Source of the DNA: Candidatus Woesearchaeota archaeon
Lineage (GTDB): Archaea > Nanobdellota > Nanobdellia > Woesearchaeales > SKIA01
DNA length: 64,000 nucleotides
NCBI GenBank assembly: GCA_047602905.1
Contig: JBLKOP010000001.1
Span: 26,773 to 90,772, forward strand
Reading direction: 5' to 3'
Every line of letters begins with the position of its first letter. Positions within the stretch are counted from its first letter, which is position 1. The notes under the pieces were generated by a model. It saw nothing but the letters and a program-made list of their open reading frames with translations. It had not been told where the DNA came from and ran no database searches. This document shows, piece by piece, positions 2,828-57,705 of this stretch. The translations under genes were made by a program, and so were the position numbers.

Positions 2828-3961
2828 ATGAGTACGCAAGAAGAAACACGAAGAATACAAGAAGTAATCAAGAACAACGACTACAACGACACACGAGCAA
2901 GCGTACTACTACCGTACCAAGACACGACACCCATAGAACTCACCGCACAAAAATACCGAGGATGCGAAGCACTCGTAATCATAGGAATAGGAGGAAGCAA
3001 CCTAGGAACGTGGGCAGTGCATGAAGCAATACACGGAGAACTCCATAACGAAACAGCAAAAACAAAAGTATACTTTGCGGACACAACAGACGCACACCAA
3101 CTAACAAAACTACAACAACGACTAGAAACCATACAAGGAAGAACTGTATACGTAGTCATAAGCAAAAGCGGAACAACAGCAGAAACAATAGCAAACGCAA
3201 GCATACTCGTAAAGGACTGGAGTGACGCAATCATCATAACAGGAAAAAACAGCCTCCTAGACGGACTTAACGGCGCAAGCACGCTACACATACAAGAACA
3301 AATAGGAGGGCGCTACAGCGTCTTTAGCGCAGTAGGACTCCTCCCACTAGCAATACTAGGAATAAACATAAACCAACTCCTAGCAGGAGCAAGAGGAGCA
3401 CTAGAAAACCTAGAAGCAATAGCGCAACAAGTCAATAAAGAACACGAAGCAAACAAACAAATAACAGAAGCCTTCTTCTTCGCACCACTACAACGACTAG
3501 GGCAGTGGAGAAGACAACTCATAGCAGAAAGCCTAGGAAAAAACGGCAAAGGACCACTACCAACAACAAGAATAGGAAGCACAGACCTACACAGCACAGC
3601 ACAAAGAAGCCTAGACGGACCAAACGACACCTACACAACATTCATAACAGTAGAAGAAACACCAACAATACCCATACCCAACAACAAAACAAGCCAACTC
3701 GTAGAAGACCTAGCAGACAAAACCACCAAACAACTCCTAGAAGCAATACAAGAAGCAACAATGAAAGCGTATGAAGAAGCAAACAGACCCTACAAACACC
3801 TAACCCTACAAAAAATACACGAGAAAAGCATAGGAGCACTCATGCAAACAATGATGCTAGAAACAATGCTACAAGCAAACCTCCTAGGAATAAACGCGTT
3901 TGACCAACCAGCAGTAGAAAACTACAAAAAACACACCAAAGAAAACCTTAAACAACTATGA
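2828..3961 (+). CDS. pgi: glucose-6-phosphate isomerase
   Basis: GIGGSNLG, SKSGTTAET and GGRYSVFSAVG motifs; TATA about 25 bp upstream. Confidence 0.8.
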   Translation: MSTQEETRRIQEVIKNNDYNDTRASVLLPYQDTTPIELTAQKYRGCEALVIIGIGGSNLGTWAVHEAIHGELHNETAKTKVYFADTTDAHQLTKLQQRLETIQGRTVYVVISKSGTTAETIANASILVKDWSDAIIITGKNSLLDGLNGASTLHIQEQIGGRYSVFSAVGLLPLAILGININQLLAGARGALENLEAIAQQVNKEHEANKQITEAFFFAPLQRLGQWRRQLIAESLGKNGKGPLPTTRIGSTDLHSTAQRSLDGPNDTYTTFITVEETPTIPIPNNKTSQLVEDLADKTTKQLLEAIQEATMKAYEEANRPYKHLTLQKIHEKSIGALMQTMMLETMLQANLLGINAFDQPAVENYKKHTKENLKQL

Positions 3962-4696: not shown

Positions 4697-4956
4697 ATCT
4701 TTTCCTTCGATTACTTCTTGATCATTTATTTCTGGAATGATATACTTTGGTGATTTTGAGTTGGTCCCTGAAAAAAGCGGTGCTTTTCCTTTTAGGATGT
4801 GTCGATCTTTTTTTCTTGGAATTGGCTCAAAGAGCGTCTATTCCTGCATCTATTGCTTTCTTTGCATGCCTAAAATTGTCAGTGAATGGCGAGGAAGCCA
4901 TCCATACGTTTCCAAAAGAAAACAACGAATCCATATAACTACCAATTAGTAGTTAT

Positions 4957-14587: not shown

Positions 14588-15550
14588 CTACGAGGAGCAG
14601 TAGAAATATGAGCAAACTTGCTTTAGGTGTGTGAATAGTTGCTTTTTGAATTCTTGATATTCTTGTTTGTCTATTGTTTGAAGTGATAAGTACTGTACGT
14701 CTTCTTGTGTATGTAATTCTTGATTTTGTAATTGCGTGCAGTTTTTTGTGAGCGTTTCTGTGTAGTTTTGCAGTGTTCGCTTGCTTGCTTGAATCTTTCT
14801 TATTATTTGTTGTACGGGTATTTCAAATAGGTCTAGTTGTTTGTTAAGCAAATACATGTCAAGTATGTCTCGCTCTTTTGGTTGTTCTCGTGTGAGTATT
14901 GCTCGAAATTTTTCTAGAGCTATTTCTGTTTTTGGATAGCACGGAATTGTTGGGCTGTGCAGAGTTACTCCAATAACTTGTGCTTGTTCTTGCACGCCTA
15001 GAATATCTGGAAGGTTTGGAACGGTTATTTGTACGGGCTTATTTTGAAGTTCTTCGGTAAAACTTATTTCTAACTTAATACTCTGTTTTTGGTTTGTTAT
15101 TGTAGAGATATAATGCATGTGCAGAACGTATATCGCTCGGCTATTACGTAGCTGTACGTAACGCTTGTTTGTTCTGTCATGAACGAAGTCAAGTCCTGTT
15201 CTTTGAGCTATAAGTTCTATTTCGTCAAAGAGTTCTTTGACGAGGTGTTTTATTACTCTTTCTTGTTGTTGAATGGATTCTAACTCTCGTATATCGTTGC
15301 ATTGCGGGTGTGTGAAGTCAAGATCTTCGCTGATGCGATGATACTTCAGATATGCTTTTGTGAGAAGAGTCCCTCCTTTAAACACAAGAGTTTGTAACCG
15401 TTGTATCTCCTTCTTTTTTGCTGCTTGTGCGAGTTCTGAAAGAAACAAGCTGAGTCGGTAGTCCTTCTCAAACTGTTCTTCTCCTGTGGTATATTGTCCT
15501 TGTTTTTTGAGGAATTGAATATATCGTTGTAATCGTTTTTGTGTAATCAT
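14588..15550 (-). CDS. AbiEii-like nucleotidyltransferase toxin (type IV TA / abortive infection)
   Basis: FKGGTLLTKAYLKYHRISEDLDF motif; 4-bp ATGA overlap with upstream AbiEi-like gene. Confidence 0.6.
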   Translation of the reverse strand: MITQKRLQRYIQFLKKQGQYTTGEEQFEKDYRLSLFLSELAQAAKKKEIQRLQTLVFKGGTLLTKAYLKYHRISEDLDFTHPQCNDIRELESIQQQERVIKHLVKELFDEIELIAQRTGLDFVHDRTNKRYVQLRNSRAIYVLHMHYISTITNQKQSIKLEISFTEELQNKPVQITVPNLPDILGVQEQAQVIGVTLHSPTIPCYPKTEIALEKFRAILTREQPKERDILDMYLLNKQLDLFEIPVQQIIRKIQASKRTLQNYTETLTKNCTQLQNQELHTQEDVQYLSLQTIDKQEYQEFKKQLFTHLKQVCSYFYCSS

Positions 15551-18171: not shown

Positions 18172-18293
18172 TGAGCCCAGAGGGATTTGAACCCTCAACC
18201 ACTGGTACACTCAGAGACCTAAGTGCTAACACTAAGGAAATTCCTTATTGCCTCATATAAGACCAGCGCTCTACCAGGTTGAGCTATGGGCTC
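18172..18293 (-). tRNA. tRNA-Ile (anticodon TAT) with a 48-nt intron at the canonical 37/38 position
   Basis: Acceptor GAGCCCA/TGGGCTC, D-stem GCTC/GAGC, anticodon stem CTGGT/ACCAG, loop CTTATA then intron TGAGGCAATAAGGAATTTCCTTAGTGTTAGCACTTAGGTCTCTGAGTG, T-arm GAGGG-TTCAAAT-CCCTC. Confidence 0.7.
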
Positions 18294-20898: not shown

Positions 20899-21666
20899 CT
20901 ATTTGTTTGCTTGTAGGCGTTCTTTTACTTCTGAGAGAGTAAAGTACTTCGCATTTACTTGCATAACCTCATGAAAAGAAACTGGCTCTTGTAGAAGAGC
21001 TACCATGTCCTCATCCCATCTGTTGTAGAGTTTTTTTGCTTGCGAAAACATACGTATAACTAGCTCATCAGTGTTTTCATGCGCGCACTTTGTTGTTACT
21101 AATTGCATTGATATAGGAAGTTGGTGCTTGATTATTTGGTATATATCGTAGTGGTCTCGTGGCTTGTTTCGTTGTATAGTTGCAGCAACCTTTTCTGCGA
21201 TAAGCTCTTGTTTATCTAGACAAAATACTTCGTAAACAGGTATGTTCTCGTAGTAGTGAGATATTTGTTGTTTTTGCGGCTTCTTAAGTAGTGTTGCGTT
21301 CTCATTAAGATCAACGTATATTGTGTCTGTTGTTTGCGTGAATGTTTCGTACTCGCAGATGATACGAACAAACCCTTTCACGTCTTTTCCTGTTGTTATT
21401 GCTTGTATGAACGGTATTTGCCTGAGTAGTTGTTGTATGTCTTTGCGTGCTTGTTTGAGATTTGTTACAGTAAAATCTATGTCTTCTGAGAGCCTTGCAT
21501 GATTAAGAAATATTTTGTTTAGTGCAGTTCCTCCCTTAAAGAAAATGTTTTTTACATCTTTGATTGCGTAGAGTACTTGTGTGAGGTAGTAGTCTTTGAG
21601 GATTAGTCGCTGTGCGAATCCTGTTTTTGCTGCTGTTTGTATTATACGTTTCTTTTCTTCATCCAT
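20899..21666 (-). CDS. AbiEii-like nucleotidyltransferase toxin, second copy
   Basis: FFKGGTALNKIFLNHARLSEDIDF; start taken at MDEEKK because the annotated 90-aa N-terminal extension is low-complexity and overlaps the upstream gene. Confidence 0.6.
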   Translation of the reverse strand: MDEEKKRIIQTAAKTGFAQRLILKDYYLTQVLYAIKDVKNIFFKGGTALNKIFLNHARLSEDIDFTVTNLKQARKDIQQLLRQIPFIQAITTGKDVKGFVRIICEYETFTQTTDTIYVDLNENATLLKKPQKQQISHYYENIPVYEVFCLDKQELIAEKVAATIQRNKPRDHYDIYQIIKHQLPISMQLVTTKCAHENTDELVIRMFSQAKKLYNRWDEDMVALLQEPVSFHEVMQVNAKYFTLSEVKERLQANK

Positions 21667-22223
21667 TGTTTGGTTTTTTCTTTTGGTTCTATTCGTATGT
21701 TGTGTCCTTGTATTGTGTTGTTTTGTGCTTCTTGGAGTCTTTTTTTTGTCGTTTTTTTGAATTTGTATCTCGTGTTTAGTATTGTTGTTGTGTTGTTTCT
21801 TTTGTTTGTGTAAATATCTACTTGTTGAGGTATTTGGTCTGTTAGATTGTAATAATTTGCTGCTGCCCACCCTCCTATGAAGTAGTCTTGTGAGTTCATC
21901 ATCTCGTCTGCTATAATAAATTCGTGCTCGTACCATGTGTTGTTTGGTGCTTGTATTGGTAGGAGATAGTATTTGTTTTTGTTCAGTTTGAGGATGCGCT
22001 TTTTTTGTAGAAGACGGTGTATTATGTAATAGAGTTGTTGTTTGTTTGTTGCGTGGTGTTTGATGTCTTCTTGTGTGAAGAAGTACTGGTTGTTGAACTC
22101 AAGTTCTTGAATGATGCGTACTTCTCGTTGAGAAAGAGAGGAAATATCATTATTTTTTGACATAATCAAAGATAAGTGATGTTTATTTATAAATGCAGGG
22201 GTTTTTTGTGTCTGTGCAAACAT
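21642..22223 (-). CDS. AbiEi-like antitoxin, second copy
   Basis: Upstream partner of AbiEii-like gene, 25-bp overlap; TATA about 29 bp upstream. Confidence 0.45.
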   Translation of the reverse strand: MFAQTQKTPAFINKHHLSLIMSKNNDISSLSQREVRIIQELEFNNQYFFTQEDIKHHATNKQQLYYIIHRLLQKKRILKLNKNKYYLLPIQAPNNTWYEHEFIIADEMMNSQDYFIGGWAAANYYNLTDQIPQQVDIYTNKRNNTTTILNTRYKFKKTTKKRLQEAQNNTIQGHNIRIEPKEKTKQWMKKRNV

Positions 22224-30984: not shown

Positions 30985-32458
<1,474 letters not shown>

Positions 32459-32564: not shown

Positions 32565-32637
32565 GGGCTCTTAGCTCAGTTGGTAGAGCGCCCGCTTTGC
32601 AAGCGGGAGGCCACGGGTTCGACTCCCGTAGAGTCCA
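32565..32637 (+). tRNA. tRNA-Ala (anticodon TGC) in the 16S-23S spacer
   Basis: GGGCTCT acceptor with G3:U70, anticodon loop CTTTGCAAG. Confidence 0.85.
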
Positions 32638-32877
32638 TTTACGCCACGCGCGTCAAAAAAGACCGTGTGGTATAATGAAAAACCGATCACGACGTAACAA
32701 TCGTGATCTCAGACAGAGATGCAAGTTCACTGCAGATTGTACCTACAATCAACGTACCAAGCAGTGTTCTTCACAACGAATTGCATTCATGACGTCACGC
32801 ATACACAAACCACAATATCCTGGAAATAACACCAAATTTTAGTAACGCAAGTTACTAAAAGACGCTAAACACTACAC

Positions 32878-35765
32878 TAGGTGTTTAGCGGATTGGAGGA
32901 ATGTTTCTTGGTGGATAGCTTGGCTTATCAAATGCGATGAAGGACGTGGCAAGCTGCGAAAAGGTTGGGCGAGGCGCAAGCAGCCTACGAACCCAACATA
33001 TCCGAATGCGACATCGCCAAAGAATACCGACAGGTAAGCAAACGCGGGGAATTGAAACGTCTTAGTACCCGCAGGAAAAGAAATCAACAGAGATACCCTT
33101 ATTAGCAGCGAGCGAAAAGGGCAAAGGGCAAACTGAATCCTCTGCAGAAATGCAGTTGGAAATGTAGTGTATAGGGACCTCACAACGGTACCTCTCTTTG
33201 AGATATGAAGTCCGCTGGAAAGCGGCAGCACAGAGGGTGAAACTCCCGTAATAGAATCAAAGAAGGACCAGAGGAATCCCGGAGTAAGGCGTCTTGGTTT
33301 TGGCGTCTGAAGATAGGAGTCATCAACTTCTAACCCTAAATAATCGATAAGTCCGATAGAGAACAAGTACCGTGAGGGAAAGCTGAAAAGAACCCGTGAC
33401 AGGGAATGAAAAGACCTTGAAACCAAGAAATTATAGTGAAGTACGCAACTAACGAGGTTGTGTACTGTTCGTTTTGAATAACGAGCCCGGGAGTGCGTCT
33501 CTGTGGCGAGGAAAACTCGACACGAGTGATCCGAAGCGAAAGCGACAGCTTGCAGCTTGCAAGAAGCGAGGTATGAAAGTGCCTGGAGTCACAGGGATTC
33601 GACCCGAAACCGGTCGAACTAGGCGTGGGTAGGGTGAAGCGTCGGTAAAACGACGTGGAGGCCCGAAGAGGTGCTGTGAACAAGCGTTCTCCTAACCTGC
33701 GTCTAGGGGTGAAAAGCCAATCGAGACCGGTGATAGCTGGTTCCTACCAAAGTTGACCGTAGTCAAGCCTTGAGCGAGACCGTATTCGCGGTAGAGATAC
33801 GGATTGGGGATGCAGGGGAAGAAATTCCTCGGTTCCTTGTCCAACTCCGAATGCGAATACATCGTAGACCTCAGGAGACGGTGGCACGGGGTAAGCCTGT
33901 GTCACGAGAGGGAAACAACCCAGATGAATGTTAAGGTCCCAAAGTACTGTTTAAGTGTTAACGGGTGAAGATTGTTGGTGTCCATAGACAGCGAGGAGGT
34001 TGGCTTAGAAGCAGCCACCCTATAATAAGTGCGTAACAGCTTACTTGTCAAGGGCGCCAGTATCGAAAATGGACGGGGCTAAATCAGTCACCGATACATT
34101 CAGCAGAAATGCGGTAGGTAGGCGTAGTGGTCGGGTAGAAGCGTGTTCGTGAGATCACGTGGACTAGCCACTAACGAAAATCCGGGTAATAGTAGGATCT
34201 GAGCATAGTGAGAATCTATGTCACCGAAAGGGCAAGGGTTCCTTGACACTGTACATCAGTTAAGGGTTAGTCGATCCTAATTCCCATCCTAACTGGATGA
34301 GAGAAAGAAAGGGAAACAGGTTAATATTCCTGTACCAAAGTACTAGACGGCGACGTGAAGTCGTATAGCCGACGCTTTGGGCTAAGAAAACACAGTCAAA
34401 TGTGTTAAGCAAGACATGTCTTTGGAGTGCTGTCATGGCGAGAAAAAGACAAAATTGTGATGAGTGCTTCGTATGAAGCATTTTTCTGATGCCTAGAGCC
34501 CATGAAAAGGAAATACGAAGCGACGTACTTTGATCGTACCCAGAACCGGCACAGGTGCCCCTAGGTTAGAAGCCTCAGGTGTGAAAGGATACTGTAGTTA
34601 AGGGAATTCGGCAAATTAGCCACGTGCCTTCGGCATAAGTGGTCCCTGCGCTTGTAGCAATGCGAGTGCAGGGTGCAATAACAAAGGAGTTCCGACTGTT
34701 TAACAAAAACTTAACTGGCTGCTAACCCGCAAGGGCTTGTATAGCCGGTGACGTCTGCCCAGTGCCAATACCTAAAAGTCCCGTTCAAGGGGCCTAAGGG
34801 CTGGTAAACGGCGGGGGTAACTATAACTCTCTTAAGGTAGCGAAATGCCTTGCCGTTTAATTGACGGCCTGCATGAATGGCGTAACGAGATCTCCACTGT
34901 CCCTAACTACACCCTTCCGAAAATTCCTCCTGGTGCAAAGGCCAGGGACTTCCAGTGGGAAGTGAAGACCCCGTGAAACTTTACTGTAACCTGTTGCTGT
35001 GATGTGGCTTTTGACGTGAAGGCTAGGTAGTAGCAATCGAAGGGCGCGCGCTAGCGCGTCTGGATGCGAAAGATGGGACACTACCCTTCAACAACTGCAT
35101 TACTTACCTCCAAAGAGAGGGACACCAGCAGGCGGACAGTTTGGCTGGGATGGCACACCGTCGAAAATGTATCGATGGTGCCCAAAGGTTGGCTCAGACG
35201 GGTCAGAAATCCGTCGTAGAGTGCAAGAGCAAAAGCCAGCCTAACTGGGATCTCAACATGACAGATCTCAGTACAGAAATGTAGGTCTAGCGAACCCCTG
35301 TAGCTCCTTGATGGGGCTCAGGTATGACCGAAAAGTTACTCCGGGGATAACAGAGTTGTCCCGCCCGAGAGCTCGTATCGACGGCGGGGCTTGCTACATC
35401 GATGTCGGCTCTTCCTATCCTGGCCGTGCAGAAGCGGCCAAGGGTGAGGGTGTTCACCTATTAAAAGGGATCGTGAGCTGGGTTCAGAACGCTGTGAGGC
35501 AGTTTGTTTATTATCTACTGGAAGTGTGGACTATCTGAGAGGAAGGATCGTTTAGTACGAGAGGAACGATGGTTCGTCGCCACTGGTCTATCGGTTGTCT
35601 TACAAGGCAGGCCGAGCAGCTACGCGATATCTGATAAGCGCTGAAAGCATCTAAGTGCGAAGCAGTCCTCGAAAAGAGATAGCACAACTCCGCGCAGAAC
35701 ACGCGGTTGATGGGACTGGGATGTACGCACCAAGCTTTTGCGAGGTGTTTAGTCCGCGGTTTCCA
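32878..35765 (+). rRNA. 23S rRNA (about 2.9 kb; ends approximate)
   Basis: GATGAAGGACGTGGCAAGCTGCGAAAAG near 5' end; sarcin-ricin loop region GTACGAGAGGAAC present; GC-rich relative to flanks. Confidence 0.85.
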
Positions 35766-35913
35766 ACAGGTTGGTTACCAATCTTTTGGTTTTAGTTCCT
35801 TTTGGATATTGTGGTTTGTGTATGCGTGACTTCATTTTTTTTCTTATTTTTTTGTTGTTTCTTCGGTTTTTTCTTCGTTACTTTTGTAAAGGCGTGTTTC
35901 TTTTTTTCTTGTT

Positions 35914-36309
35914 ATGTCTCGTAATCATCTTAATTTGTTGGTGTATCAGAAGGCTTACTCGTTTGTTCTTGAGTGCTATGCTGTTTGTGATTCTTTGCTT
36001 GATGCTGCTTTTTCTTCTCAGTTGCGTCGCGCGTTGTTGTCTGTTCCGTTAAATATTGCTGAGGGTTGTGGTTCTCGTTCGCAAAAAGTTTTTCGTAATC
36101 ATCTCTCCTACGCGTATGCTTCTTCTCAGGAGGTTGATGTGTTGTTGTCTTTATCTTGTGATCTTGCTTTTCTTGATGATTCGGTGGTTGTTTCTTTGCG
36201 GGAGGATTTGGATGTTGTTAAGAAGATGTTGTTTGGTTTGTTGGTTCGTGTTGAGAAGGAGATTTCTGGTGGTCGGCGTTATTCTTCGTATCGTTCTTCT
36301 AGTTCTTGA
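35914..36309 (+). CDS. four-helix-bundle protein of the 23S-rRNA-IVS-protein / Avd family
   Basis: LLVYQKAYSFVLECY...SSQLRRALLSVPLNIAEGCGSRSQKVFRNHLSYAYASSQEVDVLLSLSCDLAFL follows the family pattern W-QKA...Q-RRA..SIP-NIAEG...F.....A-GS..E; coding strand G+T-rich. Confidence 0.65.
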   Translation: MSRNHLNLLVYQKAYSFVLECYAVCDSLLDAAFSSQLRRALLSVPLNIAEGCGSRSQKVFRNHLSYAYASSQEVDVLLSLSCDLAFLDDSVVVSLREDLDVVKKMLFGLLVRVEKEISGGRRYSSYRSSSS

Positions 36310-36857
36310 ATTTCTTTTTCGTATATTCTTAGTTGTTTGCTTAGTGGTTTGTACATTGTTGTTAGGTGTTGTGTTCGTTGTTGTTTTCTTTTTTTTGTGT
36401 ATACGTTCATGTCTTGGCTGTTGTCTATTACGTCTGCTAGTTTGATGATTCCTACTTGCGGGTTTGTTTTTGTTTCTTCTTGTAGTTGTTTGTGGTATTG
36501 TTTGTCTTCTTCTTGTTTGTTCTCTGGGTTTTTTGTTTTGGTGAGTGCTTGTACTATTCTTGTTACGTCTCTTCCGAAGTGTTTTTCTAGTTGTTTGCTT
36601 GTTGTTTTTGTGTCTTCTAGTGTGTCGTGTAGGAGTGCTGCTATTATTGTTGTTGGTGTTATTCTTTTGTCGGTTGTTTCTAGGAGTTTTTTGGCTACGT
36701 TTAGTGGGTGTGTTATGTATTCTTCTCCTGTTTTTCTTGTTTGTCCTTCGTGGCTTTTTTGTGCGTAGATGGCTGCGTAGAGTATGTGTTTTGCTTGTGC
36801 TTCTCCGTATCTCTTGTTTGCTTTTTCGTGGATGGTTTGTAGTTCTTCTTCTTGCAT
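36279..36857 (-). CDS. HD-domain phosphohydrolase (RelA/SpoT-type HD, ppGpp-hydrolase-like)
   Basis: YITHPLNVAKKLLE...AALLHDTLEDT; 31-bp convergent overlap with 35914-36309. Confidence 0.65.
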   Translation of the reverse strand: MQEEELQTIHEKANKRYGEAQAKHILYAAIYAQKSHEGQTRKTGEEYITHPLNVAKKLLETTDKRITPTTIIAALLHDTLEDTKTTSKQLEKHFGRDVTRIVQALTKTKNPENKQEEDKQYHKQLQEETKTNPQVGIIKLADVIDNSQDMNVYTKKRKQQRTQHLTTMYKPLSKQLRIYEKEIQELEERYEE

Positions 36858-36931
36858 GTCTTTCTTGTTGTTTTGGTTGTTTTTAAGTTGGTTGGATACG
36901 TTTTTAAGTTCGTTCTTGTTCTTCTTGTTTT

Positions 36932-37933
36932 ATGTTGTGTTTGGCTATTGAGTCTACTGCTCACACGTTTGCTGCTTCTGTTGTTAAGAAGTCTTCTTCT
37001 GGTTTGGTGAGTGTTTTGTCTTCTGTTCGTGATATGTTTACTACTGAGGGCGGGGGTCTTATTCCTCGTGAGCTTGCTGATCATCATGTTCTTGTTTGGC
37101 GAGAAGTTGTTTCTTCTGCTCTTGCTGAGGCGGGTGTTTCTTTGTCTTCTATTGGTTTGTTGGCGTATTCTCGCGCTCCTGGTTTTGGTCATGCTTTGCG
37201 TGTGGGTAGTGGTGTTGTTCGTTGCTTGGCTTCTCGTTATGGTTTGCCTGTTGTTGGGGTTAATCATTGCGTTGCTCACTTAGAGGTTGGTCGGGTTCTT
37301 GGTGGGGTGGCTGATCCTGTGTTGTTGTATGCTTCTGGTGCTAATACGCAGGTGATTGCTTTGGAGGGTGGTCGGTATCGGGTTTTTGGTGAGACGCTTG
37401 ATTTGGGGGTGGGTAATTTTTTGGATTCTCTTGCTCGTAGTATGGGTTTGGGTTTTCCTGGTGGCCCTGCTCTTGAGAAGCTAGCTGCTTCTTATCGTGG
37501 TTCTCTTGTTGAGTTGCCGTACGTGGTTAAGGGTATGGATGTTTCTTTTTCTGGTATTCAGTCTGCTGTTCGTTTGTTGCTTAAGAGGGGTGTTTCTTCT
37601 GAGGCTATTGCTTTTTCTGTTCAGGAGCACGTGTTTGCTATGCTTGTGGAGGTTTCTGAGCGAGCGTTGGCTCATACGGGTAAGTCTTCTTTGGTTCTTG
37701 GTGGTGGCGTTGCTTGTAATGCTCGTTTGCAGGAGATGTGTTCTTTGATGTGTTCTTCTCGTGGAGTTTCTTTTTTTGCTCCTGAGAAGCGGTTTCTTGT
37801 TGATAACGCTGCTATGATTGGTGTTCTTGGTTTCTCTGTTTTTGACCGGTTTGGTTCTGTTTGTGTTTCTGAGGTAGATTTTGATCCGTATGAGCGTACT
37901 GATGAGGCGGTTGTTGCTTTGTGGGATGTCTAG
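36932..37933 (+). CDS. kae1: Kae1/TsaD tRNA N6-threonylcarbamoyladenosine synthase
   Basis: LAIESTAHTFAASVV, GVNHCVAHLEVG (HxxxH metal site), GGGVACNARL; codons almost exclusively NNT/NNG. Confidence 0.8.
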   Translation: MLCLAIESTAHTFAASVVKKSSSGLVSVLSSVRDMFTTEGGGLIPRELADHHVLVWREVVSSALAEAGVSLSSIGLLAYSRAPGFGHALRVGSGVVRCLASRYGLPVVGVNHCVAHLEVGRVLGGVADPVLLYASGANTQVIALEGGRYRVFGETLDLGVGNFLDSLARSMGLGFPGGPALEKLAASYRGSLVELPYVVKGMDVSFSGIQSAVRLLLKRGVSSEAIAFSVQEHVFAMLVEVSERALAHTGKSSLVLGGGVACNARLQEMCSLMCSSRGVSFFAPEKRFLVDNAAMIGVLGFSVFDRFGSVCVSEVDFDPYERTDEAVVALWDV

Positions 37934-38325
37934 TAGTATCTATTGAAGTTTCTTCCTTGTAGTATGGTTGGTTGGTGGTTTCTGTGTAGGTGTGGTTGGT
38001 TGTGCGCGTAGTGTCTTGTTGTGTGTGTTTTGTACGTGCTGCTGTAGTGGTTGTAGTAGTTTTGGTTGTAGTGTACGTACATGGTTCTTGGTGGATGGAT
38101 TATTTCTTCAAAGACGTAGTGAGTTTGTGCTCTTGGTATGGTTGTTTGTAGGTGGCTTCTTTGGTGTGTGCTAGTACTTATTGGTGTGCTGTAATTTGGT
38201 GCTCTTGCCCAGAGCGGGCATTCGGGTGTTGGGCAGTGGTTGCTTGTTGTTGTGTGCTGTGCGCTTGCTACTGGTAGGAGTAGGAGAAGTGCTGCTAGGA
38301 GTAGGGTTGTTGTTTTTAGTTCCAT
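37930..38325 (-). CDS. small secreted His/Tyr/Asn/Thr-rich protein
   Basis: Signal peptide MELKTTTLLLAALLLLLPVASAQ; HYNQNYYNHY...HYAHNQPHLHRNHQP. Confidence 0.4.
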   Translation of the reverse strand: MELKTTTLLLAALLLLLPVASAQHTTTSNHCPTPECPLWARAPNYSTPISTSTHQRSHLQTTIPRAQTHYVFEEIIHPPRTMYVHYNQNYYNHYSSTYKTHTTRHYAHNQPHLHRNHQPTILQGRNFNRYY

Positions 38326-38549
38326 GTGTGTATTCCTCGTTGGTACTCGGTTATTCCGGGCGCGGTTATTGTTGTTTGTAGTTCGTGAGTTAGTGTTGGG
38401 TTGTGTATTCCGTGTGTGGTTGTTTGTGGGTTGTGTATGTGATACGTTGTTGTGTGTGCTGTTATGCTAATTGCTTGTAGCGTGAGTATTGCTAGTAGGA
38501 GTACTGCTAGTATGCTGAGTAGTTGGTGTGTTTTGTTGTTTAGTACCAT
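38316..38549 (-). CDS. small secreted His/Thr-rich protein
   Basis: Start taken at MVLNNK; signal LLSILAVLLLAILTLQA; HTTTYHIHNPQTTTHGIHNPTLTH. Confidence 0.35.
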   Translation of the reverse strand: MVLNNKTHQLLSILAVLLLAILTLQAISITAHTTTYHIHNPQTTTHGIHNPTLTHELQTTITAPGITEYQRGIHTWN

Positions 38550-38965
38550 GTGTATACGTTTGGGTTGTAGGTTCTTGGTGTGTTGTAGCTGTTTGTTTGT
38601 GGTCTTTGGTTTGGTTGTGTCATTCGTTGTCCGTTGACTCCGCTGTAGAACCTTCCTGGTGTCCATGCGCTTGTGTGTCCGAGGAGTTGGTTGTTGTGTT
38701 GGTATAGGTAGCGGTTGTGCGGGTAGCTTATTGGTTGTTGTACTCTCATGTACCCTTCTGGTCTTCCTGTTGCTCCTACGTATCGTTGGTAGGGGTTGGT
38801 TCTTGGTGGTTGGTTGTTCCAGCTAAGTATTGTTGGTGTGTTGTAGCTGTATGGCTGTATTGTTTGGTATCCGTGGGTTGCTGGGTTGTAGACGCTGATT
38901 GCTTCTGTTAGTGGTATGCTTGCTAGGCTGATGATGATTGCCAGTACAAAAAACACGTATTTCAT
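38540..38965 (-). CDS. small secreted Tyr/Asn/Pro/Gln-rich protein
   Basis: Signal MKYVFFVLAIIISLASIPLTEA; low-complexity mature part. Confidence 0.4.
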   Translation of the reverse strand: MKYVFFVLAIIISLASIPLTEAISVYNPATHGYQTIQPYSYNTPTILSWNNQPPRTNPYQRYVGATGRPEGYMRVQQPISYPHNRYLYQHNNQLLGHTSAWTPGRFYSGVNGQRMTQPNQRPQTNSYNTPRTYNPNVYTWY

Positions 38966-39041
38966 GACTACTAGTAAGTGGTGTTTGTTTTTATATGTTG
39001 TTATTTTTTCTTGCCGAAAAGCAAGCGTTTAAAAAGCTTGA

Positions 39042-57587: not shown

Positions 57588-57705
57588 GCGGATGTAGCTC
57601 AGCCTGGTTAGAGCACTACGCTCATATTGATGAGCACTGAGATCAAGTTATTGATTGATGACAGGAGATACGTAGGGGTCCGGAGTTCAAATCTCCGCAT
57701 CCGCA
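57588..57705 (+). tRNA. tRNA-Met (anticodon CAT, elongator or Ile2-type) with about 43-nt intron
   Basis: Acceptor GCGGATG/CATCCGC, anticodon stem CTACG/CGTAG, loop CTCATA then intron; TATA 30 bp upstream; T-run downstream. Confidence 0.7.

Follow-up and report, generated by a model that had tools for sequence, protein, structure and literature searches.

We describe a gene for a four-helix-bundle protein that lies immediately behind the 23S rRNA gene in a 64-kb stretch of DNA from a Candidatus Woesearchaeota archaeon (contig JBLKOP010000001.1; the whole stretch is called the window below). Its product belongs to the family of proteins that bacteria encode inside intervening sequences (IVSs) in 23S rRNA genes. 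To our knowledge, these 23S-IVS or "S23p" proteins have been without a known function since the 1990s and are usually dismissed as cargo of selfish insertions. The archaeal clade keeps its gene on the rRNA side, outside the rRNA itself, apparently with a promoter of its own and under purifying selection, which argues that the link between the family and rRNA is biological and not an accident of tolerated insertions. Taking the evidence as a whole, we consider it probable that this is a vertically kept rRNA-flanking gene, the product of which would act as an accessory RNA-binding oligomer on transcripts of the rRNA operon. The family and the fold are known, but an archaeal context that is locked to the rRNA operon and yet autonomous has apparently not been described before; we found no paper on an archaeal rRNA-flanking arrangement, which is not proof that there is none. 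The finding strengthens the case for a functional link between the family and rRNA genes and corrects a tempting annotation of the gene as part of a diversity-generating retroelement (DGR).

Family, fold and the retroelement question

The open reading frame (ORF) at 35914-36309 (+ strand) starts with ATG and encodes 131 aa. It matches the Pfam family PF05635 (23S_rRNA_IVP) with an E-value of 6.2e-24 and a score of 84.7 bits (cut-off, 33.8 bits). For TIGR02436 ("four helix bundle protein"), the E-value is 3.2e-23 and the score 82 bits (cut-off, 24 bits). An NCBI record from a Candidatus Woesearchaeota archaeon metagenome-assembled genome (MAG), also named "four helix bundle protein," is 100% identical to the window protein. 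These matches bear out the TIGR02436-type membership that an initial annotation of the stretch had proposed from motifs in the translation. The motifs themselves (QKAYSF, QLRRA, LNIAEG, and ASSQE) are present and coincide with invariant columns of the clade alignment; across its 26 sequences (alignment A1), the signature Q36, L, R38, R39, A40, S43, L46-N47-I-A-E50-G51, S70, and E73 is invariant. A signature motif of the GxxRxxxSxxxNxxE type has been described for the PF05635 family (PMC3936711). The start coordinate given in the initial annotation, 35770, falls within the last bases of the 23S rRNA gene, whereas the true ATG is at 35914; the only ORF starting at the former site (35771-36052) is not matched by the family profile and is in all likelihood spurious. 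No second copy of the gene was found in the 64-kb window with the family profile. We conclude that the ORF is a real, intact gene, present as a single copy in the window, and that it belongs to the IVP branch (PF05635/TIGR02436) of the Avd/IVP superfamily; its identity and architecture, as described here, are close to certain. Membership in a defence system was rejected, as no PADLOC defence-system match was obtained for the protein or its HD-domain neighbor.

An AlphaFold2 monomer model of the protein, built with 26 homologues, has a predicted local distance difference test (pLDDT) score of 91 and contains helices at residues 9-25, 31-52, 57-83, and 89-127. In a Foldseek comparison with the PDB, the model was closest to the chains of Xcc0516 from Xanthomonas campestris (2GSC; TM 0.76-0.82/0.90-0.92, 27-29% identity), followed by BT_0352 from Bacteroides thetaiotaomicron (2RLD) and then by Avd of a Bordetella phage (4DWL and 8UB7; TM 0.73/0.88, 13-14% identity). 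A profile search of PDB sequences matched only 2GSC (E = 5.6e-23) and 2RLD. Xcc0516 and BT_0352 are free-standing "S23p" proteins that share the family, the QxRRAxxSxxxNIAEG...S..E signature, and the fold with the archaeal protein. They are bacterial and no tie to an rRNA operon is shown for them here, in contrast to the archaeal clade, which is positionally locked to the operon. The crystal entries 2GSC and 2RLD hold five chains each, and by analogy the archaeal protein may likewise be a homopentamer.

The family also includes Avd of DGRs (PMC10053308; bioRxiv 10.1101/2023.10.23.563531), and DGRs are present in Nanoarchaeota and other DPANN archaea (PMC4372165). The initial annotation had entertained a role of the gene as part of a DGR, while reporting neither a reverse transcriptase nor a pair of template and variable repeats (TR/VR) in the window. 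The latter observation holds: no reverse transcriptase domain occurs in window ORFs of ~190 aa or more, and the 64 kb contain no TR/VR-like repeat pair, only low-complexity T-rich or A-rich repeat families. Likewise, no reverse transcriptase family was present among the best 25 of the 69 families listed for 72 neighboring ORFs from 21 related loci, although a family with a single member could escape such a list. The bAvd-like model PF22296, which does match a bacterial relative (P0029), did not list the window protein at E-values up to 1, and three archaeal relatives were also unmatched. In addition, the isoelectric point (pI) of the window protein is 7.66, compared to the pI of ~9 that serves as a criterion for Avd of archaeal DGRs (PMC4372165), although more distant clade members do reach 8.4-9.6, and the closest structures are those of non-DGR proteins. 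On these grounds the suggestion of a DGR had to be dropped; the four-helix-bundle gene is not a component of such an element. A further version of it would be an orphan Avd that acts in trans with a DGR elsewhere in the genome. The predicted Avd fold of the protein and the occurrence of DGRs in Nanoarchaeota and other DPANN archaea would agree with this, as would the fact that the part of the genome covered is 64 kb only. However, Avd genes normally lie within the DGR cassette, and a DGR offers no rationale for a place kept behind 23S in 20 lineages. Sequence identity to Avd is also lower than that to Xcc0516. With the negative searches and the near-neutral pI added, we regard an Avd acting in trans as highly improbable. 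Although the archaeal protein and Avd have the same fold and superfamily, they are separated by low identity, the unmatched PF22296 model, the missing reverse transcriptase and repeats, charge, and the rRNA-operon context. The branch is now set apart from the Avd role in DGRs, a distinction that matters for the annotation of DPANN genomes, where DGRs are common.

Position and conservation beside the rRNA operon

The window contains a complete archaeal rRNA operon on its + strand, consisting of 16S, tRNA-Ala, and 23S (Rfam, ARAGORN; Table 1). The ATG of the four-helix-bundle gene lies 127 nt past the end of 23S, close to the ~150 bp estimated in the initial annotation. The 23S rRNA of the window aligns with the archaeal model from end to end (model positions 1-2987) and the ORF begins beyond it, as is the case in 19 relatives. 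Moreover, the gene lies 79 nt past the 3′ arm of the 23S processing stem, hence outside the stem, and the same stem-then-gene geometry was seen in five complete related operons (L007, L014, L015, L018, and L019). An IVS-like trailer, with the gene inside the processing stem, was therefore rejected: the stem closes at 35835, ahead of the gene, and it does so in the five related operons as well. An inverted repeat around the ORF was found neither in the window nor in L002, L014, L015, or L019; as a control for this search, the insertion in the RNase P RNA of a bacterial locus (L069) yielded a 40-nt stem with 85% complementarity. Since there is no insertion interrupting a mature rRNA and no long flanking inverted repeat, the gene was also rejected as an IVS-encoded ORF. 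Consequently, the initial view of the gene as rRNA-linked stands insofar as the linkage is kept across the clade, but placement within an IVS does not.

The spacer between the stem and the gene contains four T runs of 6-8 nt (35835-35842, 35847-35853, 35867-35872, and 35901-35907), and T makes up 68% of 35836-35913, in agreement with the T-rich tract noted in the initial annotation. All relatives have T tracts behind the processing stem, and two to four of them lie ahead of the gene in the window and its relatives. Archaeal RNA polymerase terminates at oligo-dT, and these tracts are most likely the terminators of the rRNA operon. The TATA-like sequence TTTGTAAA begins 31 nt ahead of the ATG. 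Over the last 90 nt before the gene, the TATA-like octamer that scored best, alone or jointly, started at -33 to -25 in ~20 of 26 related loci, and octamers matching at least 7 of 8 positions numbered 16 in the two bins over -35 to -26 vs. no more than 3 in every other bin. Because the archaeal TATA box is centered ~26-27 nt ahead of the transcription start, its spacing before the ATG implies that the mRNA is leaderless and comes from a promoter of the gene itself, located directly behind the putative oligo-T terminators of the rRNA operon. This suggests that the four-helix-bundle gene is transcribed alone, as a leaderless mRNA, from its own TATA-like promoter; promoter, leaderless mRNA, and termination at T tracts are all predicted by analogy with established archaeal transcription biology. 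In two lineages (L021 and L024) the gene is divergent from 16S, making co-transcription with rRNA impossible; despite this divergence, a TATA-like box occurs at -29 in L021. The spacer showed no RNA structure above that of shuffled controls (z 0.04) and no match to an Rfam family.

Two minor features of the spacers were observed in relatives. In L019, spacer positions 3873-3917 are reverse-complementary to 3510-3557 near the same 23S 3′ end (19 nt at 95% and 22 nt at 86%). A short palindrome or hairpin of the form TAG[CT]-N4-[AG]CT(A), often with a GNRA-like loop, occurs 38-66 nt past the 23S end in many relatives, for example in L014 (~4877-4890), L013 (~430-443), L159 (four copies), and L131 (three copies). 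The TAGC-N4-GCTA motif is ~10-fold enriched in the spacers (17 matches in 14 of 26 vs. 1.6 expected). It was considered as a cassette boundary or binding site and rejected, because it is not found in the window spacer and also occurs behind 23S in relatives without the four-helix-bundle gene; it therefore belongs to the rRNA trailer and not to the gene.

The homologues comprise a compact group with identities of 50-87% and another with 35-42%, after which bacterial sequences follow at ~32-36%. The contigs of four close relatives all start within 23S, which is followed on the same strand by the gene. When one genome per species was scanned, the best matches were 22 archaeal loci; these belonged to Woesearchaeota, Nanoarchaeota, Nanobdellota, and some MAGs that carry the label Methanosarcinales. 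Linkage was tallied by Rfam and blastn combined over the 23 lineages with readable upstream DNA; L085, L025, and L026 lie outside this tally, as their contigs end 104-235 nt upstream of the gene. The 23S 3′ end was found 91-470 nt upstream on the same strand in 20 of the 23 lineages (the window, L001-L003, L006-L011, L013-L020, L022, and L023). In L021 and L024 (2/23), the divergently transcribed gene lies 467-492 nt from the 16S 5′ end, and one inversion of the rRNA operon would explain both cases. Thus, the rRNA side is kept in 22 of 23 readable lineages, far better than the downstream side, where Kae1 is found in about half of the related loci and LonB, topoisomerase, arginase, deoxyhypusine synthase, or others are found elsewhere. 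The rRNAs of the window and the related operons share 78-84% identity in 16S and 71-77% in 23S, which corresponds to order- to class-level divergence. We conclude that the slot behind 23S is very probably the ancestral position of the archaeal clade, passed on by vertical descent.

The four-helix-bundle gene is under purifying selection. The ratio of non-synonymous to synonymous substitution rates (dN/dS) was 0.40 when the window gene was compared with that of L085, its closest relative (87% of amino acids identical), and 0.11 for the pair L001 and L002. Pairwise protein identities are correlated with those of the neighboring 23S 3′ end (Mantel r 0.66, p 2e-4, 21 taxa, calculated from 230 nt of 23S). 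The initial annotation had offered an orphan or a remnant as further options; neither agrees with a gene that is intact, under purifying selection, and kept in position over order- to class-level divergence.

Possible functions and competing explanations

By analogy with its homologues Xcc0516, BT_0352, and Avd, the protein would form a homo-oligomeric ring. It may bind RNA or serve as an adaptor, acting on transcripts of the rRNA operon or in ribosome biogenesis, and the place of its gene beside the operon may couple its expression to rRNA synthesis. As such, it would be the archaeal counterpart of the bacterial members encoded in 23S, 16S, and RNase P RNA genes. As a pentamer, Avd is known to bind structured RNA as well as a partner enzyme (bioRxiv 10.1101/2023.10.23.563531). 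It is conceivable that the archaeal protein has a comparable RNA-directed function, binding structured RNA or recruiting a partner to rRNA-operon transcripts, and we put this part of the proposal forward tentatively.

The wider family is large, with ~32,000 representative clusters (50% identity, public data) reached by the family profile at E-values up to 1e-3, 56 of them at 1e-30. Its members include ORFs of 23S IVSs in Coxiella and Leptospira; that of Coxiella is decaying and probably untranslated, and the IVS has been called selfish (PMC4990558). Insertions in 16S and 23S of the candidate phyla radiation (CPR) encode the 23S_rRNA_IVP family (PMC11270868), and PF05635 members are also found inside CRISPR-cas operons (PMC3936711). 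The bacterial IVS proteins (Coxiella burnetii S23p and those of Leptospira) and the CPR insertions thus share both the family and the association with rRNA operons with the archaeal gene. In contrast, the bacterial IVS ORFs are contained in the rRNA gene itself, where they occupy the loop of a long stem that RNase III excises, and they rely on the rRNA promoter, while the archaeal gene lies outside the mature rRNA and the stem, has no flanking stem, possesses its own TATA-like box, and evolves under purifying selection. Among the 58 bacterial loci that we recovered, ~21 of which were covered by the Rfam scan, four have the ORF embedded in a stable-RNA gene and two lie within 250 nt of a tRNA, with no tRNA found for most others; a general tie of the bacterial relatives to stable-RNA genes was rejected on this count. 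L048 and L059 carry an ORF of the family inside 23S. In L069 (Carboxydothermus islandicus NZ_BDJL01000041, 707-1481) and L044 (Clostridia MAG JAAXZE010000104, 4826-5598), a class-A RNase P RNA contains an insertion with a complete PF05635 ORF, and the genes are ~775 nt long each, compared to 367 positions in the model. A hairpin at model positions ~126-141 holds the ORF of L069 (877-1233, 118 aa) in its apical loop, and a 40-nt inverted repeat (826-865/1239-1278) flanks the ORF, making the insertion an IVS-type element within RNase P RNA. A broader conjecture, to which we assign a rather low probability, is that PF05635 proteins are cross-domain factors that work in cis with strongly transcribed genes for structured RNAs (23S, 16S, and RNase P RNA). 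The DPANN clade would then be a domesticated version, retained at the rRNA operon because its protein has to be produced close to nascent pre-rRNA or to assemble on it. Possible roles would be those of a chaperone, a protector, or an adaptor for a processing enzyme. If true, this would provide a host-level function for the bacterial IVS proteins.

Several observations weigh against an accessory RNA-binding oligomer that has been kept beside the operon for its role there. RNA binding, oligomerization, and expression of the archaeal protein are predictions. The window protein is near neutral, unlike the basic Avd; the pI of its nearest relatives is 5.3-7.7, and only the more distant clade members are basic (8.4-9.6). 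With a separate promoter, the position is not needed for co-transcription and the linkage could be historical. In L012 (1/23), a protein-coding gene lies upstream, with no rRNA within 850 nt. The Mantel test drew on only 230 nt of 23S, and the archaeal sequences form a single clade in a neighbor-joining tree with a low bootstrap value of 63%. A sister-group relation to the bacterial RNA-embedded members was seen in one neighbor-joining tree at 8% bootstrap, and because of this value we make no claim for it. Most of the 58 bacterial loci are free-standing, and most of the closest bacterial relatives lie away from stable-RNA genes. Lastly, the slot behind 23S is often without the gene. Metagenome contigs were scanned with the group's 23S 3′-end pattern, at least 700 nt of downstream sequence being needed, and the gene was present 84-486 nt behind 23S in 7 of 31 related 23S ends, or in 7 of 23 when the 23S match was at least 80% identical. 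Any rRNA-handling role must therefore be dispensable.

Behind roughly 70-77% of related rRNA operons the gene is missing through loss or replacement, which makes it accessory and not essential. Gene-less and gene-bearing loci share downstream synteny. In L101, Kae1 follows 23S directly after 107 nt; in L090, an unrelated 121-aa ORF stands between 23S and Kae1; and other small ORFs lie behind 23S in L091 and L155. No clear degraded copies were found in gene-less loci, the sole marginal, partial match being that of L096 (E = 0.029). The overall picture is of an old, vertically inherited, selectively maintained yet dispensable gene in a slot that turns over. As for individual loci, the slot in L090, L091, L101, L155, and L159 is either empty or holds unrelated ORFs of 100-121 aa. 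The match of L096 lies ~170-330 nt past 23S and may represent a gene copy in decay. In L154, the family profile is partially matched for a second time (profile positions 72-114), ~1.5 kb downstream of the four-helix-bundle gene.

The main rival to a vertically kept, functional gene is that the ORF is fixed or slowly decaying cargo of a selfish IVS-like element, which formerly had stable-RNA genes as its targets and in these archaea landed in the non-essential 3′ trailer of the rRNA and serves the element or nothing. Bacterial relatives do ride stem-loop insertions in 23S and RNase P RNA, as well as in 16S and 23S of the CPR (PMC11270868), and the Coxiella IVS, with its decaying ORF, has been described as selfish (PMC4990558). 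Both the variable slot, with Kae1 directly behind 23S in L101 and unrelated small ORFs in L090, L091, and L155, and the patchy distribution (7/31) would fit such an origin. Nevertheless, the archaeal loci lack a flanking inverted repeat or stem of the kind seen in L069, and the gene has its own TATA-like promoter. It has been under purifying selection over deep divergence (dN/dS 0.11-0.40, motif invariant in 26 sequences), has co-diverged with 23S, and has left no remnants in gene-less loci except the weak match in L096. Viral relatives of the protein were considered as candidates, and none was confirmed in viral contigs. Selfish cargo is therefore, in our estimation, an unlikely explanation, though one to be taken seriously.

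Two other explanations concern the position itself. The gene could be expressed by read-through of the rRNA operon, as an ORF in the 3′ trailer of pre-rRNA that is freed by processing, analogous to an IVS ORF. It would be well placed for this, as in 20 lineages it is oriented like 23S and follows it by 91-470 nt, just past the processing stem. Yet two to four oligo-T tracts separate the stem from the gene in the window and its relatives, a TATA-like box is conserved in position at about -30, L021 and L024 are divergent from the operon, and the spacer is no more structured than shuffled sequence and has no Rfam match, making read-through quite improbable. Alternatively, the synteny could be inert, such that a gene with an unrelated cellular role simply never moved away from the rRNA operon. 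In favor of this, the gene has its own TATA-like promoter, Kae1 is also nearby in about half of the loci, and one inversion of the operon would account for both 16S-side cases. We nonetheless see little chance of this, given that the rRNA side is kept in 22 of 23 lineages, far above the downstream side, at 78-84% 16S identity, and that the family is repeatedly tied to stable-RNA genes in bacteria (PMC11270868; PMC4990558).

Genomic surroundings of the gene

The features of the rRNA operon and of the genes around the four-helix-bundle gene are given in Table 1. Gins51, eIF2-gamma, Kae1, an S-layer protein, and an archaeal flagellin are encoded in the window and confirm that it is part of an archaeal chromosome. 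The HD_4 gene converges on the four-helix-bundle gene and overlaps it by 31 nt at its 3′ end, an arrangement also present in L001 and L002. In the window, which contains no 5S rRNA at all, and in the related operons examined (L001-L026), 23S is not followed by a 5S rRNA gene; the four-helix-bundle gene occupies the site that is held by 5S in many archaea. Rfam additionally called tRNAs at 18172-18293 (-) and 57588-57705 (+), which are 122 and 118 nt long and were not reported by ARAGORN; these are probably intron-containing archaeal tRNA genes.

Table 1. Features of the rRNA operon and adjacent genes in the 64-kb window.
Feature	Coordinates	Strand	Basis
16S rRNA, first gene of the operon	30986..32456	+	Rfam SSU_rRNA_archaea, 1411.6 bits, full model
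tRNA-Ala(TGC), 16S-23S spacer	32565..32637	+	Rfam and ARAGORN
23S processing stem, 5′ arm	32789..32820	+	32-nt inverted repeat, 97% complementary to 35804-35835
23S rRNA, complete, without ORF-bearing insertion	32888..35786	+	Rfam LSU_rRNA_archaea, 2554.2 bits, model positions 1-2987
23S processing stem, 3′ arm	35804..35835	+	Inverted repeat pairing with 32789-32820
Four oligo-T tracts, putative rRNA-operon terminators	35835..35907	+	T-run coordinates; knowledge of oligo-dT termination
TATA-like box TTTGTAAA, putative promoter of the four-helix-bundle gene	35883..35890	+	Octamer position across related loci
Four-helix-bundle protein gene, 131 aa	35914..36309	+	PF05635/TIGR02436
HD_4 (HD-domain) protein gene, convergent neighbor	36279..36857	-	Pfam HD_4, E 1.4e-22
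Kae1/TsaD gene, downstream neighbor	36932..37933	+	Pfam TsaD, E 5e-70; tblastn across loci

The initial annotation placed the gene on a G+T-rich block of reversed skew, and our measurements agree: AT skew is -0.54 to -0.66 over 36-39 kb, compared to +0.3 to +0.73 in most of the window. Third codon positions reflect this composition, with A4/C5/G30/T61% in the four-helix-bundle gene (+), A2/C4/G28/T66% in Kae1 (+), and A70/C26/G3/T1% in the HD_4 gene (-). Synonymous-site strand composition is almost fully segregated over window positions 35800-39000 and in the window as a whole, and the skew follows the strand and not the direction of the gene. The extreme values are common to L085, whereas L001 and L002 are mild, with the same polarity and the same switch at the start of BatA, suggesting that the skew pattern is conserved and its amplitude lineage-specific. 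Other T-rich blocks occur at ~14.7-16.2 and 21.0-24.3 kb. Genes for AbiEii-family nucleotidyltransferase toxins are located at 14588-15550 (-) and 20899-21936 (-), with E-values of ~4e-28 each, and both fall in these two other T-rich blocks of the + strand.

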